Positions 13,015-51,248 of a stretch of DNA of 64,000 nt are shown piece after piece; the stretch's first letter is position 1; every line of letters starts with the position of its first letter. Below the pieces are notes generated by a model that saw only the letters and a program-made list of their open reading frames with translations, was not told where the DNA came from and did no database searches. The DNA comes from an uncultured cyanobacterium. GTDB lineage: Bacteria; Cyanobacteriota; Cyanobacteriia; Cyanobacteriales; Nostocaceae. The DNA is taken from assembly GCA_963706595.1 (NCBI GenBank), contig OY970166.1, positions 5,120,001 through 5,184,000 of the forward strand. Reading direction: 5' to 3'. The position numbers and the translations under genes were made by a program.

Positions 13015-13740
13015 ATGTCAAATCAGGATTATAAATATGACGTTGCGCTTTCTTTTGCAGGGGAAGACCGTAAATACGCAGACGAATTAGCACAAAGGCT
13101 AAAATCTCTTAATATTCGTGTCTTTTATGACGAATATGAACAAACCACACTTTGGGGAAAGAACCTATATACTCATCTTTCTGAGGTATACCAAAAGGAA
13201 GCTCGTTTCTGCGTCATGTTTCTTTCACAAAATTACGCTCAAAAGTTGTGGACAAACCGTGAACGTGAAGCGGCTCAAGCTCGTGCTTTTCAGGAAAATA
13301 AAGAATACATTCTTCCTATACGTCTGGACGATACAGAGATACCAGGAATCCTAATTACTACTGGATACCTAGAATGGTCTAATGCTGATTCAATTGCTAA
13401 GAGGGTGTTTGAAAAATTGAGCATTAAGGTGACATCTGATATTCCTGTTACTGGTGATGAGGCATCAGAAGTAGGAGAAGATTATACTGAATTACGGGAA
13501 TTATTGAATAATCAAGAATTTGCAAAAGCTGACTTTTTAACTGCAAAGTTGATGCTTCGGGTTGCAAGACAAGAACAAGAAGGCAGGTTAAGTCTAGAAA
13601 ATCTGCTCGAATTCCCAAAAAAAGATATAGTTACTATCAACAGACTTTGGGTATCAGGAAGCAAAGGAAGATTTGGATTTAGTGTGCAAAAACAGATTTG
13701 GATGGATTTGGGTTGGATAGAAAAGTGCCTCGAAAGGTGA
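13015..13740 (+). CDS. TIR domain + GUN4 domain protein (C-terminally disrupted)
   Basis: YDVALSFAGEDR...WTNRE...ILPIRLD TIR (catalytic Glu present), then DY..L..LL....F..AD..T...ML...I..LW...S.GRFGFSVQK.IW GUN4. Confidence 0.85.
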   Translation: MSNQDYKYDVALSFAGEDRKYADELAQRLKSLNIRVFYDEYEQTTLWGKNLYTHLSEVYQKEARFCVMFLSQNYAQKLWTNREREAAQARAFQENKEYILPIRLDDTEIPGILITTGYLEWSNADSIAKRVFEKLSIKVTSDIPVTGDEASEVGEDYTELRELLNNQEFAKADFLTAKLMLRVARQEQEGRLSLENLLEFPKKDIVTINRLWVSGSKGRFGFSVQKQIWMDLGWIEKCLER

Positions 13741-14346
13741 GCTTGGGCAAATTGAAAGGCATCTTATGATCGAGAGAACTGTGTAAGTTTTTTTGAATGG
13801 TGGAATGGGTAGAAGGGTAAAAAAGTGTTATTAATATATATTTGAGCAAAGGGCAGCCGCAGGACACCTGCCTCTAGGAATATATGTAAAGGTACACCGA
13901 AGTTAATAATGGATGTATAGAGATACATCAGAAATGGTGGGAACTGCGACTGTCTGCGACGAAATAAAAGTAAAGGAAGAGGAAGAAAGAGAATGGAAAG
14001 AGTTAATTAAGTAAGGAAAGAAAATTAGAGAGAAAAATATGAAAAAATTGTAAGGGTACTAGAATACTTTTATATATTTATTGTAAAATATTTAATACGT
14101 ATTTTAATAGTCATGGCATTGGGTGCATTTATAGGAAATTTTTTAAAAAATGGCATTTTAGGTATGGGATTTGCAGTAATTTTATTAATAGTGTTAGAGC
14201 TTTTTGGATTAGAAACGAACGTAAAAGTAAAGAGTAAATTATTTACGAAGATTAAACGAGTGAATGAAGGAAAGAGGAAAAGCGTTACGTAAAGCGTGAA
14301 GACTACATAAAATTCTTGGAATCTCTGTGTGAAGTGTAACACATAA
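13741..14346 (+). pseudogene. Degenerate distal part of the TIR-GUN4 gene
   Basis: Out-of-frame GUN4 GHLP motif at 13862-13873, two transmembrane-like segments, terminal V-K-C-N-T-stop at about 14329-14346; several intervening stops and frameshifts. Confidence 0.65.
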
Positions 14347-14381
14347 ATGTTCCAGCCTTTCCTAAACATTTGTTATCAAAA

Positions 14382-14830
14382 TCAGGAATTCCGATACCTG
14401 GCACTGTCATAACAATTAGCCACCACAAACTGTTCAGCCACTTCACGAACTGCCGAATCTTCAAATTCCCATTCCGCCCAAGGTAATCGCATCTGCCCTG
14501 GCGATGTCTTTTTACCCTTATGCTTTATAACTTTAGGCAACAATTTACTTCCCCAGTGATAGCTTTTCCCTGGTTTAGGTTGAGGCTTATACTTCTTACA
14601 AAAACCTCGATATTTAGCAGCGCATTCAGACAACGAATTACCCAAAGATAAAAAATCAGGATGCCATTGAGTTAGTCCATCATCTGTTAGCCTATCGTAA
14701 GTGCCAAATTTACTAAAATCATAGAAAAATCCCGCTTCCCTTCCAGTCGCTTTGGGGTTAGGGTGAATGTACTGCAGTGTAATCGTAATGCCCTATGATA
14801 AATTAACCAGTGCATGTGGTTTTCATATTT
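14382..14830 (-). mobile_element. 5'-truncated REP-associated tyrosine transposase (RAYT / Y1 HUH) remnant
   Basis: Frame upstream of the annotated ORF reads TLQYIHPNPKATG...GFFYDFS.FG.YD.L..DGLTQWHP.FL.LG; YIHxNP is the catalytic-Tyr motif of RAYT-type transposases; N-terminal HUH part is missing or decayed. Confidence 0.75.
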
Positions 14831-15446: not shown

Positions 15447-15580
15447 CACGCTATGTGGAAAAATCAATGAGAAACCTAACCCCCCAACCCCCTTCCCTAC
15501 AAGGGAAGGGGGAGAATTCAAAGCCTCTCTCCTTGTAGGAGAGAGGTTTGGAGAGAGGTTTTCTAAATACCCTAAAAATA
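15447..15580. repeat. MITE-like element with two REP palindromes (inverted relative of 48272-48421)
   Basis: TCACGCTATGTGGAAAAAT...CCCCTTCCCTACAAGGGAAGGGGG...CCTCTCTCCTTGTAGGAGAGAGG; matches the reverse complement of the 48.3 kb element. Confidence 0.7.
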
Positions 15581-48271: not shown

Positions 48272-48421
48272 GACTTTTCACGGTATCGGGAAAACCCCTC
48301 TCCAAACCTCTCCCCTACAAGGAGAGAGGCTTTAATTTTTCCCCCTTCCCTCGCAGGGAAGGGGGTTAGGGGGTTAGGGGGTTAGGTTTCACGTTAATTT
48401 TTCCACATAACGTGAAAAGTC
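48272..48421. mobile_element. 150-bp MITE with REP palindromes
   Basis: Terminal inverted repeats GACTTTTCACG / CGTGAAAAGTC; internal CCCCCTTCCCTCGCAGGGAAGGGGG; truncates the adjacent transposase remnant. Confidence 0.8.
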
Positions 48422-48699
48422 AGGCTAGATATCGGGGGTTTTGTCGCAAGTACAAGCCAAAGCCAAAATCAGAAAAGCGTAACCACTGGGGAAGCAAGCC
48501 GTTAGCGGGAATGAAGTTTAAAGGAAAGCTGAATAAAAAGAAAACATCACCAGGACAAATGAATTTAACTTGGAACAACTGGGAATCAACAGACCCAGAA
48601 ATTCAGGAAGTAGCTGATAAATTTGTCATGGCGAATTGCTATCAACCACCAGGGGGGAGTGCCAGGGAACGAAAACCGGGAAACCTTGAAACTTCGTAG
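48422..48699 (+). mobile_element. C-terminal remnant of a RAYT-like transposase, paralogous to 14382-14830
   Basis: YRGFC.KYKP.PK....HWGSK.L......KKTSPGQM.L.W..WE..D....EVA..FV.ANCY is shared with the 14.4 kb copy. Confidence 0.75.
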
Positions 48700-48740
48700 A
48701 AAAGTCGGCAATAAAAAATGTTTATGATTGACTGAAAGCT

Positions 48741-51248
48741 TTATAGGTTACAGTTTACAACTCTCTGCGCGAGAGAAGAGTAATTTTCACGCATACAATA
48801 ACTAAGGCTGACCCCATTTATGACTTTTACGTTCACCGCGTTCGTCCATATAATCCCTTGTTTGTATTTACGCTCCTGAACACTCAAACCAAAGCGACCA
48901 TCACTATATTGCACCCAAAGTTGGTCAATGGTGCGGAGGTCAGAACAGGGAAATTTTTCTATATCTTCACTAGATAAGTAACCTTGACTTTCTCGGTTAG
49001 CCACCTTGAGCATCATTTTAGCTGTTTCCTCATCAGCTTCCTGCCAATTTCCAGCTATCAAGTGTTCTAAAAGTTGTCTGTATTGTGGCGGCCATTGGTC
49101 TTTAACAACCCTTATTCCTTCTCCATCAGTGCGGTTTTCCTGAGTCCAACAAGTAAGATAATTCTCATCTCTTGCTGGATACTGTTTTGCTTCTGCTTCC
49201 GTGGGTAATCTATAACGAATTAGGTTGTTGTTAAAATTAGAATTAAAACTCAACCAAGCACAAAAACGATTAGCAGCTTGAAAAGTAATGCCAGTAACAG
49301 GTTGAGTACGAGCAATATATTTTAAGTTCAAGTCCCATAAGTCAAATAAGTGATATTCTGCAATTGTAATGTATCCCTGATCAATTTTTTGCGTTTCATT
49401 AATTCTCAATAAATTATTCAACCTCCTTGATAGTTTTACCTGTGCTGCTATTATAGCAATTTCTAGGTCAGGGGATTCCAAACCAGCTTCGAGAATATTT
49501 TCAAGTTCTCGCCGTGTTTGTGGTTCTACTTCCTTACTTTCTTTCCAACAATCATAAGCTAAAGTTAAGGAAGCAACCGTCTGATTTTGTAACGCTGCTT
49601 TAATCAATTTTGTGGCATCACTTTGAGCAGCATAAAGGCGAATTGTTTCTGCCCACCAAGGATTATCCAAATTATCAATTAATATTTGGTTATCAATTAA
49701 TATTTGTTTTTGCTGCAACTCTTTCACCTCAGCCGCAGCTAAATATTCCTGAAAACTCAAATGAGCAAATTCAAATTTGCCTTGCTCTTTTTCCACTATT
49801 AAACCACTCACATCTTTAACTTGTTCTAAAAATTCTCCTGGTGTTAGTGTATTATTAACTATTGTTTGTAGCTTCCTAGCAATTAAACTCTCAACTTCTG
49901 CTGGTGCAAAAGTGCGAGTTTTCTTTTGCATCAAATCCAGCGCTAAAACTTGTAATACTGATTTATTTTGGTCAGATGTAAGAGGTGCTGTGATTTCCTT
50001 AGCAGCTTGTCGAGTTCCTAAAAGTAAATCACAAATTTTTTGATAAAGTTCCACCCTTTCTCCTGGTAATGCACTACCGTTATAATGAACAGTAGCAATC
50101 ATTGTCACCAATAGCGGATTGGTTGCCATATCAGCAATAGCACGATTATTAATAATCCGATCAATTAAATCTGCGGCATTTTTCTCAGATTTTGCTTTTA
50201 CAGCTTGATTATTTTTCCCAGCGCGACTTCTAATTTCTGTTTGCAGATACCAACTATTAATAAATTGCTTCATCTGCTCTAAAGTGAAAGGTAGAACTTT
50301 TAAAATAACTCCTACTTGATCCACAGGCGCACTACTATAACCATAAGGACGAGAAGTAATAATAAAAGCTGTTTGGCGATAAATAGCCATTTGCTGATTT
50401 ACCCATGCACTTACCTGCAAACGTTTTTCACTATCAGCAACTTCATCCAATCCATCCAACATGACTAAACATTTACCATTCTTTAACTGTTCATTAAACC
50501 AGTCTGTTTGGGGGTTTAGTTCAGCAAAAGCAGGTTGGTTTTTTAAGTGATTAGTAATTAATTCTGGTAAGTTAGGAGGTTGTTGGCTGGTAATTTCTTC
50601 ACGGATATCGCGCAGGTACAATAACACTGGTAAAAATTGCGTTGCTTTATATTTGCTATAACCATTTTTGGCATAGGTCAAAGTTAAATGCTTGAGCAAA
50701 GTTGTTTTACCATATCCAGGGGGAGCGATAACAGCCATGCGGCGAAAACTATTTTGTTGAGAAATAGCAGCTAAAAAATCCCAAATTTCTTGATTTTCAG
50801 AATGTTGACTGGTGTGTTGAGTCGTAACCATTGCACCAGAAATATTTTCTAAATTACCTGTCTCAACTTTTAATGGTACAAATACATCCTCTAAATCTAA
50901 TACAGGTAAGCCAATTCTGAAACCCTCAGTTTCAAAGTCACAATAAAAATCGACTAATGCTTTTTTATACTTACTCTCAAATCCTGAAAGTTTTTTAATA
51001 ACTTTTTGTGGTAAATCGTCTGCTTGTTTAGCAGTCCATTCTCCAGCTTGTTTACCTTTTTCTTCTGCTTTGGTTTCTACGGCTTTCATAAATTCGCCGC
51101 TAAACTTCACCCAAATAGAGGAACTAGCAGTGAGAAAAGTAGAAATTACAGCCTGTGTCCATTGTTGGTTAAGGAGAAAATGACCTGTTACACCAACTCC
51201 AGCACCAGTAGGAAACCATTGGAATAATGCCTGTGTAATCTTTTGCAT
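48741..51248 (-). CDS. NACHT NTPase with partial FGE/C-type-lectin-like segment and C-terminal GUN4 domain
   Basis: APPGYGKT, MLDGLDE, ITSRP, NPLL and FAHLSFQEYLAA; QPVTGITF..A..FC.WL...YRLPTEAE; W..AD.ET..MML...FPC.DL.TIDQLW..YS.GRFG.SVQ; SSLAQRVVNCNL. Confidence 0.9.
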   Translation of the reverse strand: MQKITQALFQWFPTGAGVGVTGHFLLNQQWTQAVISTFLTASSSIWVKFSGEFMKAVETKAEEKGKQAGEWTAKQADDLPQKVIKKLSGFESKYKKALVDFYCDFETEGFRIGLPVLDLEDVFVPLKVETGNLENISGAMVTTQHTSQHSENQEIWDFLAAISQQNSFRRMAVIAPPGYGKTTLLKHLTLTYAKNGYSKYKATQFLPVLLYLRDIREEITSQQPPNLPELITNHLKNQPAFAELNPQTDWFNEQLKNGKCLVMLDGLDEVADSEKRLQVSAWVNQQMAIYRQTAFIITSRPYGYSSAPVDQVGVILKVLPFTLEQMKQFINSWYLQTEIRSRAGKNNQAVKAKSEKNAADLIDRIINNRAIADMATNPLLVTMIATVHYNGSALPGERVELYQKICDLLLGTRQAAKEITAPLTSDQNKSVLQVLALDLMQKKTRTFAPAEVESLIARKLQTIVNNTLTPGEFLEQVKDVSGLIVEKEQGKFEFAHLSFQEYLAAAEVKELQQKQILIDNQILIDNLDNPWWAETIRLYAAQSDATKLIKAALQNQTVASLTLAYDCWKESKEVEPQTRRELENILEAGLESPDLEIAIIAAQVKLSRRLNNLLRINETQKIDQGYITIAEYHLFDLWDLNLKYIARTQPVTGITFQAANRFCAWLSFNSNFNNNLIRYRLPTEAEAKQYPARDENYLTCWTQENRTDGEGIRVVKDQWPPQYRQLLEHLIAGNWQEADEETAKMMLKVANRESQGYLSSEDIEKFPCSDLRTIDQLWVQYSDGRFGLSVQERKYKQGIIWTNAVNVKVINGVSLSYCMRENYSSLAQRVVNCNL

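Follow-up and report, generated by a model that had tools for sequence, protein, structure and literature searches.

What does a transposase-like gene do at the end of a defence-type gene, and why is the DNA between the two conserved? This question is raised by two loci, A and B, in the 64,000 nucleotides (nt) of cyanobacterial DNA analysed here (the window: positions 5,120,001–5,184,000 of the single-contig 5.57-Mb genome of an uncultured member of the Nostocaceae, contig OY970166.1). An earlier note on this DNA had described two genes with unrelated N-termini, TIR at A and NACHT at B, which both carry a GUN4 domain and stand tail-to-tail with remnants of one transposase family. Pfam matches confirmed the domains, and both remnants turned out to belong to the same Y1_Tnp family (Y1 below). 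We conclude with high confidence that a module conserved across Cyanobacteria is present in the window as two decayed copies, loci A and B. We are equally confident of the order of this module: a signalling- or defence-type gene ending in GUN4, a G/T-rich tract, a block of ~120 nt and a convergent Y1 gene of ~255 amino acids (aa). It is possible, and we propose it with caution, that the module is a means of targeted variation in cyanobacteria that works without a reverse transcriptase. A domesticated Y1 (HUH) nuclease would recognise the ~120-nt signal directly behind the GUN4-type sensor domains of NLR-like, TIR, caspase and kinase proteins and, in repeated rounds of cutting, processing and rejoining, rewrite the last 20–250 nt of the gene.

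A protein search with the remnant of locus A gave 230 proteins at E ≤ 0.001. The remnant is 54–76% identical to full-length 'transposase' proteins of ~255 aa (PF01797), which occur in all major cyanobacterial orders. The family motifs are SNHVHYL and YIHANP; among the best 120 of the 230 homologues, 117 have the HUH motif and 118 have YxHxNP. The family proteins also have a conserved C-terminal extension of ~110 aa. Full-length relatives score 66–73 bits against the Pfam Y1_Tnp profile, above its cut-off of 23, and sequence searches of the PDB with the family alignment and with one full-length protein gave no match.

A full-length homologue was confirmed at 301 genomic loci, and the surroundings of the gene were surveyed at the best 80 of these. 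A convergent GUN4 domain lies directly downstream in 65 of the 80, and these are 65 of the 74 loci with at least 1.4 kilobases (kb) of downstream sequence. Six of the 15 loci without GUN4 have less than 300 nt of sequence downstream, and nine have at least 1.4 kb. Among eight GUN4-less loci that were scanned, five have a convergent KAP, NACHT, trypsin, CHAT or TIR gene lacking the GUN4 end; a truncated block is kept in two of those GUN4-less loci. The family gave 26 matches in 21 related genomes, and at least 18 of them adjoin a GUN4 place. The enrichment of the motif and of a convergent Y1 gene at GUN4 ends, which had been predicted from the window, is therefore real.

The genes that face Y1 have different beginnings and a common end. 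Using Pfam, we confirmed GUN4 in 57 of the 58 partner open reading frames (ORFs) scanned in other genomes; of the 65 partners, the scan omitted six whose tblastn span is interrupted by an in-frame stop, as well as a single short ORF (L062). The N-termini of the 58 are NACHT (14), AAA_35 (9), TIR_2 (8), caspase (7), protein kinase (7), and CHAT, trypsin, EAD1, KAP and VWA (one each), with none in the other eight. PADLOC gave TIR matches (ThsB-like, PDC-S66). The GUN4 parts aligned to positions ~284–448 of the 450-position PADLOC model PD-T4-6, its C-terminal third, as seen for both window ORFs, L102:550–2007 and L039:3844–6573; this E. coli defence protein may thus have a GUN4-like C-terminal part. 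Judged by their domain matches, the GUN4 proteins of loci A and B belong to the STAND/NLR-like and TIR defence types. According to Kaur et al. (2020; PMC7159879), the GUN4 domain of cyanobacteria serves conflict systems as a sensor or effector; transposases are not mentioned in the available portion of that paper.

In the window itself, locus A consists of the following features.

13015–13740, plus strand: ORF of 241 aa with TIR_2 and the first part of a GUN4-like domain, ending in TGA at 13738–13740.

13741–13873, plus strand: frame-shifted, stop-containing rest of GUN4, with the GHLP codons at 13862–13873.

13874–14312, no strand: A-rich filler of ~440 nt with no frame open, at the position of the relatives' variable tract.

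14313–14404, plus strand: degraded copy of the inter-gene block, with the motif at 14329–14376 and the third-frame TAA at 14344–14346.

14385–14792, minus strand: 5'-truncated remnant of the Y1_Tnp family, 136 codons, with its stop at 14382–14384.

The TIR-GUN4 gene of locus A is broken. Pfam places TIR_2 at aa 10–123 (69.9 bits, cut-off 28) and GUN4 (PF05419) at aa 151–233 (86 bits, cut-off 29.2; profile positions 2–86 of 141), and the GUN4 match at 13465–13761 of the window includes two TGA codons. The earlier note had let this gene run on to a 'CNT-stop' at 14344–14346. That codon lies outside any open gene, because the frame ends at 13740 and is followed by the frame-shifted, stop-containing rest of GUN4 and by the ~440 closed nucleotides. 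A 59-codon ORF inside the filler (14113–14292, plus strand), hydrophobic in its N-terminal half and without a Pfam match, is probably spurious. The block is by eye ~40 nt shorter than the consensus, and its transposase-end motif is at 14393–14404. No orthologue of locus A was found among the 10 same-genus genomes searched, which makes a comparison of close strains impossible for this locus.

Locus B consists of the following features.

48741–51248, minus strand: ORF of 835 aa with NACHT, a short FGE-sulfatase-like piece and a GUN4-like domain.

48781–48880, minus strand: decayed second half of GUN4 and the tract, from 'SVQ' to the block, with the frame still open.

48659–48780, minus strand: full-length copy of the conserved block, 122 nt, read in frame a (..AQRVVNCNL), with the stop at 48741–48743.

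~48412–48696, plus strand: 5'-truncated remnant of the Y1_Tnp family, C-terminal extension only, with its stop at 48697–48699.

48290–48405, minus strand: small palindromic interspersed repeat that abuts the transposase remnant and replaces its 5' part.

The NACHT match scores 37.3 bits (cut-off 26.7) and the GUN4 match 91 bits (cut-off 29.2; profile positions 7–84 of 141). After 'SVQ', the GHLP motif and ~40 nt are gone in comparison with the orthologues (two same-genus genomes and Amazonocrinis). The segment that had been read as scrambled is therefore a decayed second half of GUN4 with deletions, and not a clean variable region. The palindromic repeat (~110 nt, with CCCC/GGGG runs) has a second copy at ~15450–15540 on the plus strand, after the nucleotidyltransferase gene adjoining locus A. 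The stop-to-stop gap between the GUN4 side and the transposase remnant is 35 nt at A and 41 nt at B. Remnant A has no start codon and no HUH motif, and its first residues are the YIHxNP motif (YIHPNP). Neither window remnant gave a Pfam match to Y1_Tnp; both begin at or after YIHxNP, and HUH is missing for this reason. Both copies are inactive relics without HUH, so that diversification is not going on in the window at present.

Is the resemblance of the two loci more than a coincidence? A shared stop-spanning motif had been noticed, and in a two-sequence blastn search it aligned without gaps at 37 of 49 positions (E 3e-5), collinear with a match of 150/222 (68%) between the two transposase remnants. 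Chance does not account for this, since the motif and/or a remnant follows six of the 10 GUN4 places in the own genome (loci A and B and four others); one of the 10 is a full-length canonical GUN4. Using tblastn with remnant A, we found five places in this genome, all convergent and directly after a GUN4 place, and at the sixth GUN4 place (1,363,947) the motif is accompanied by a very short remnant. None of the family copies in this genome is intact. All are cut at the 5' end, leaving 136, 109, 103, 79, 47 or few codons. The nine PF01797 places of the genome belong to other Y1 families and are located elsewhere, and the block motif matches only at the ends of GUN4 genes. At 1,212,900–1,213,700, a 247-codon ORF resembling DDE-type transposases occupies the place of the 5' part of another Y1 remnant, which suggests that this remnant was truncated by an insertion sequence.

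What is conserved between the two genes? In the full set of loci the block measures ~120 nt, and the length from anchor to anchor is equal within 1 nt in 50 of 58 copies. Read in the GUN4 sense, it starts with a pyrimidine run, TCTCGC, four variable bases, AGACTTGTAA and two more TAA codons. It ends with GATACCTGGCAC; this sequence belongs to the ~45 nt of the block that also encode the end of the Y1 protein. Three staggered TAA codons in the first 35 nt, one per frame, close every frame. Among 75 units, these 35 nt are read in frame a in 28, in frame b in 17 and in frame c in 20; an earlier stop is used in eight and a later stop in two. The tails from different frames include ..SLASRLVNCNI, ..LLSRRDL and ..FSRVETCKL. 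Since the same block DNA is read in three frames, its conservation is in the DNA and not in the peptide. The block start is tandemly duplicated at L027, L067, L088 and L114, with units of 48–84 nt, which gives two successive sets of three-frame stops. GUN4 paralogues without a Y1 remnant retain the first ~30 nt of the block, even where everything downstream has been replaced.

One explanation of such an arrangement would be an ordinary convergent gene pair. The block would then consist of overlapping 3' ends, a terminator or an antisense-regulatory region of two co-regulated genes, the tract would be an unconstrained low-complexity linker, and Y1 would have some other role. The Y1 coding end inside the block fits this explanation, and a terminator common to both genes, or control of convergent transcription, would be compatible with the fixed spacing. 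However, the 35 nt on the GUN4 side are conserved although they are read in three frames, and they are kept where the downstream part has been replaced. RNAalifold gave no consensus structure in 50 block copies on either strand. Rfam in E-value mode, applied to five loci, gave three weak unrelated matches far under the gathering scores and no block family. We consider the gene pair an improbable explanation, and the tract bears on it as well.

How does the DNA on the gene side of the block behave? The tract between the GHLP codons and the block is 19–256 nt long (median 62), its lengths fall into the classes modulo 3 as 21/21/32, and its G+T content is 70% versus 50% in the GUN4 core. Between orthologues with 85–99% identical flanks, it has been replaced entirely. 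It had been suggested that close strains would differ by a localised peak of replacements and indels just upstream of the motif, and such a peak was found in Microcystis genomes, in metagenome contigs and in ortholog pairs. At the same locus of three Microcystis genomes, the Y1 gene is 97–99% and the GUN4 domain 92–97% identical. The tracts of two of these genomes (34 and 36 nt) have no similarity, and the third genome has ~125 nt of repeat-containing G/T-rich DNA in place of tract, block and spacer, up to the end of the Y1 gene. Metagenome contigs on this locus (Logan, four runs) are clean in the Y1 gene, with 0–3 differences in ~800 nt, and diverge exactly at the outer edge of the block into differing C/A-rich continuations. 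One contig shows 3 differences over 805 nt of Y1 sequence and carries 14 substitutions and 7 gap letters that are all confined to the 31-nt tract. A 65-nt alternative tract in runs X1 and X3 was rejected as a sign of heterogeneity, being probably paralogue L118.

Ortholog pairs with an intact Y1 gene from other lineages show the same picture: in all six usable pairs, the tract is 29–57% identical versus 77–97% for both flanks. Five of the 11 pairs were dropped, namely L012/L018, in which the pattern found no block, and four with a misplaced loosened GHLP anchor (L013/L020, L059/L077, L008/L013 and L029/L033), whose pre-tract identity is only 54–67%. In the window's genus, all four syntenic pairs with a Y1 gene or remnant have tails 50–66% identical and cores 87–89% identical; in 13 of 14 syntenic pairs without a Y1 remnant, the tails are 92–100% identical. 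One observation favours the gene pair, as the tract of L013/L020 behaves like other unalignable intergenic DNA. Against it, replacement of the tract at a flank identity of 97–99% far exceeds neutral change, and in orthologues without Y1 the tail is no less conserved than the domain core.

Where could new tracts come from? Tract sequences match in only 16 of 3321 pairs, of which 10 are orthologues and six are duplicated blocks or near-orthologues. Gene conversion among paralogues was considered as a source and is unsupported, because the tracts are unique and not exchanged between paralogues. In the Microcystis orthologues L124 and L108, the N-terminal gene bodies and downstream flanks are 97–98% identical and GUN4 is weakly aligned (77% over 84 nt); apparently, the whole GUN4 domain is sometimes exchanged, beyond the tract.

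Slipped-strand mispairing could act on the tract without any help from Y1: in such a contingency locus, G runs or short repeats would shift the gene among three C-terminal peptides. G runs of 7–9 nt and direct repeats do occur within some tracts, the genes make use of each of the three frames, and the three staggered stops define three tails. However, orthologous alleles are unrelated in sequence and differ by wholesale replacement rather than repeat number, and many tracts contain no simple repeat. The conserved Y1 partner would also be left unexplained. A simple-repeat contingency locus is therefore very improbable.

Hardly credible, in our opinion, is the reading of the variable regions as targets of a diversity-generating retroelement (DGR). 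The own genome has five RVT_1 places, and the part of PMC7517822 that is available describes cyanobacterial DGRs which target C-terminal domains of similar multidomain proteins. Yet the 160-nt pre-block segments have no template-like second copy in the own genome at any of the five loci tested. In addition, the alleles differ in length and carry substitutions of all kinds that are not adenine-specific. On this point the earlier note, which had assumed variation without a DGR template, was right.

Is the Y1 gene still at work in the relatives? The ratio of nonsynonymous to synonymous substitutions (dN/dS) is 0.06–0.25 in all 11 pairs, with dS up to ~1, and higher, at 0.15–0.52, in the adjacent GUN4. 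Going by these ratios, the Y1-like gene of the relatives is functional and under strong purifying selection. The mean protein distance is 0.27 for Y1 and 0.53 for GUN4, and many Y1 loci have syntenic orthologues. The distances of Y1 and GUN4 correlate with r = 0.44, which none of 2000 permutations reaches, and the nearest neighbours agree in 16 of 55 cases. On a quick Y1 tree, in which 23 of 45 forks are unresolved, the N-terminal architecture labels need 21 changes, the minimum being nine. This moderate correlation, together with related Y1 copies beside differing N-termini, indicates that the GUN4–block–Y1 end has moved or been homogenised relative to the gene bodies. Full-length Y1 copies are present in two of 10 same-genus genomes and in one further relative among the 21 searched; in the genus the gene is mostly decayed.

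Such a history raises the question of a selfish or hitch-hiking element. The block and the Y1 gene would harbour at GUN4 ends or spread among them by recombination, with no adaptive diversification, and the tract would be weakly constrained host DNA at the end of the element, scarred by insertion, excision and deletion. Several observations fit. In Microcystis, a 73-nt block is 97–100% identical between paralogues whose GUN4 domains are only 70–95% identical. The Microcystis sites without Y1 have one common 46-nt filler and a flank of 130–409 nt or more at 97–99% identity, and filled and empty sites differ by 845 nt. The close Y1 copies beside different N-termini, the only moderate Y1–GUN4 correlation, the frequent decay of Y1 genes and the GUN4 ends deleted from the neighbour gene at five of the eight GUN4-less loci scanned are also in keeping with an element of this kind. 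A 409-nt flank beyond the Y1 gene, with a 69-aa ORF inside, was seen at L102:2925–3333 and also at L105, L108, L124 and L126, and is 98–99% identical beside different GUN4 paralogues. From this shared flank and the 46-nt filler, the repeated unit in Microcystis is larger than the Y1 gene.

Other observations do not suit a selfish element. Its ends are not recognisable: similarity between copies begins at the ATG, no conserved sequence was seen by eye upstream of the Y1 ATG in 76 loci, and the block pattern stands upstream of the Y1 gene in few loci (the 7-mer in six of 76). The clear case is L044 from the Microcystaceae. There a near-perfect block start lies ~55 nt upstream of the Y1 start codon (L044:2926–2947) and not downstream, and the GUN4 gene enters the end of the Y1 gene without a block; rearrangement or a more element-like condition may account for this. 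Syntenic inheritance at dS up to ~1, with the low dN/dS, also argues against selfish spread. Precise excision by Y1 enzymes leaves no scar, as is the case for IS608. Replacement of the tract at one orthologous locus with flanks 97–99% identical is not explained by insertion at a new place, and the tracts are not common to paralogues. In sum, we regard a selfish element as rather unlikely, and as less remote than the gene pair.

We tentatively favour the reading in which the gene's 3' end is turned over by a domesticated Y1 nuclease-ligase working at the block edge; that the enzyme cuts at the block, and that cutting is the cause of the turnover, we infer from the sequence comparisons. The Y1 protein would be a domesticated single-strand DNA nuclease-ligase, with the block as its cognate site. 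After nicking at the outer edge of the block, it would stay attached to the end on the block side, while the loose end towards the gene would be trimmed, extended or re-copied and rejoined, so that the sequence from GHLP to the block would be replaced repeatedly and altered in length. Any resulting frame would run into one of the three staggered stops, and few stop codons occur in G/T-rich DNA. The outcome would be turnover of the C-terminal tail of the sensor domain. Decay of the Y1 gene, which has happened in the own genome, would freeze the tails and let the module erode. The earlier note had proposed the motif as a cis site for Y1-driven diversification of GUN4 C-termini. This proposal is supported in part: conservation of the motif as DNA in three frames fits a cis site, a conserved hairpin was not found in it, and the window copies are inactive.

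Several points weigh against a role of Y1 in the turnover. The ~30 nt kept by Y1-less paralogues imply that conservation of this part of the block does not depend on a Y1 gene in cis. A hairpin is needed by known Y1 enzymes, and the missing consensus structure counts here too: only 39 of the 58 copies could form a stem of at least 4 bp at the start of the block (19% of shuffled sequences). The Y1 gene has often disappeared from beside GUN4 genes that remain, and is thus dispensable. Variable tails also occur in one pair without Y1 (L082/L169), and several Microcystis Y1-less pairs have unrelated tracts as well, their orthology being uncertain. The contrast between Y1-linked and Y1-less pairs is suggestive and not decisive, since the ortholog groups are few and the Y1-linked pairs are more diverged. 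Finally, Logan contigs cannot reveal heterogeneity within a clone.

Domesticated Y1/RAYT transposases (RAYT, REP-associated tyrosine transposase; REP, repetitive extragenic palindromic sequence) are widespread, and their function is a long-standing question. To our knowledge, few mechanisms exist for varying one chosen stretch of a bacterial gene. The module offers a testable case, with a defined enzyme gene, a ~120-nt DNA signal and a junction at which sequence turnover occurs naturally, and it is present in cultivable strains of Microcystis, Nostoc, Calothrix and Trichodesmium. The GUN4-like domains on NACHT, TIR, caspase and kinase modules, together with the PADLOC likeness, point to fast-evolving sensor ends of conflict or signalling proteins. 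Should Y1 be what drives the turnover, the module would represent a new class of targeted diversification, in which the three-frame terminator makes every outcome translatable. If Y1 is not the driver, a gene end that is terminated in three frames and conserved as DNA still needs explaining. In full-text literature searches we found no paper that links GUN4-domain genes with Y1 transposases and no published description of the module.

How does the module compare with known systems? With the TnpA of IS200/IS605 elements (IS608, ISDra2) it shares the Pfam Y1_Tnp domain and presumably the chemistry of single-strand cutting and rejoining. Unlike these elements, it has no hairpins at left and right ends and no near-identical multicopy elements, and the family proteins carry the extra C-terminal domain of ~110 aa and score 25.7 bits against the NCBIfam IS200 cut-off of 55. 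A classic IS200/IS605 insertion sequence was considered and rejected, because there is no conserved upstream end, the block is one-sided in all but a few loci, the copies are diverged and the orthologues are syntenic.

There is also a likeness to RAYT (TnpA-REP) proteins. As described in the portions of PMC5581495 and PMC6006769 available here, these have the same class-2 type Y1 core (NHVH, WE, YIHANP), behind which come an 'SS' motif and a tail that extends the C-terminus at length. The same portions describe low copy number, vertical inheritance, slow evolution and a tie to one conserved DNA sequence, as in the module. However, the cognate sequence of the module is one-sided and lies inside the 3' end of one gene family, not scattered between genes; it has no robust hairpin and adjoins a hypervariable tract. 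The 'RAYT' label of the earlier note is therefore loose. The family is Y1_Tnp, and the two full-length relatives tested score 70.5 and 65.5 bits against NCBIfam REP_Tyr_transpos, below its cut-off of 80; the window remnant gave no match to that model. Assignment to RAYTs by flanking, abundant REP/REPIN hairpins was rejected, because the motif of the own genome occurs at GUN4 ends only and has no consensus structure. Quentin et al. (2018; PMC6006769) list a Y1 subclass 2.1 with NHVH, WE, an SS motif and a long tail and without REP. By our reading of the table in the available part of that paper, the family appears to resemble this subclass.

A published parallel in cyanobacteria concerns TnpA-REP genes beside prochlorosin genes of marine picocyanobacteria, for which Laurenceau et al. 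(bioRxiv 10.1101/2020.03.09.984088) proposed a diversifying role and left causality open. There, too, a Y1 transposase-like gene is co-localised with a hyperdiverse cyanobacterial gene family. The gene family and the Y1 clade are different, and a fixed block, a three-frame stop and a defined junction are not described in the available part of that preprint. DGRs are alike in that they vary the 3' end of sensor-type genes next to a conserved cis element, and the cyanobacterial multidomain proteins concerned are of the same kinds. Unlike a DGR, the module has no linked reverse transcriptase and no template repeat, and its changes alter length and are replacements that are not adenine-specific. 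By analogy only, since the enzyme family is unrelated, no gene-segment joining was seen and the mechanism is inferred, the module can be set beside V(D)J recombination. In that system, a domesticated transposase (RAG) acts at recombination signal sequences, the signal has a fixed length, and variability is limited to the coding end that abuts it. If our reading is true, the module would be a bacterial parallel to this signal-guided junctional diversity of immune receptors.

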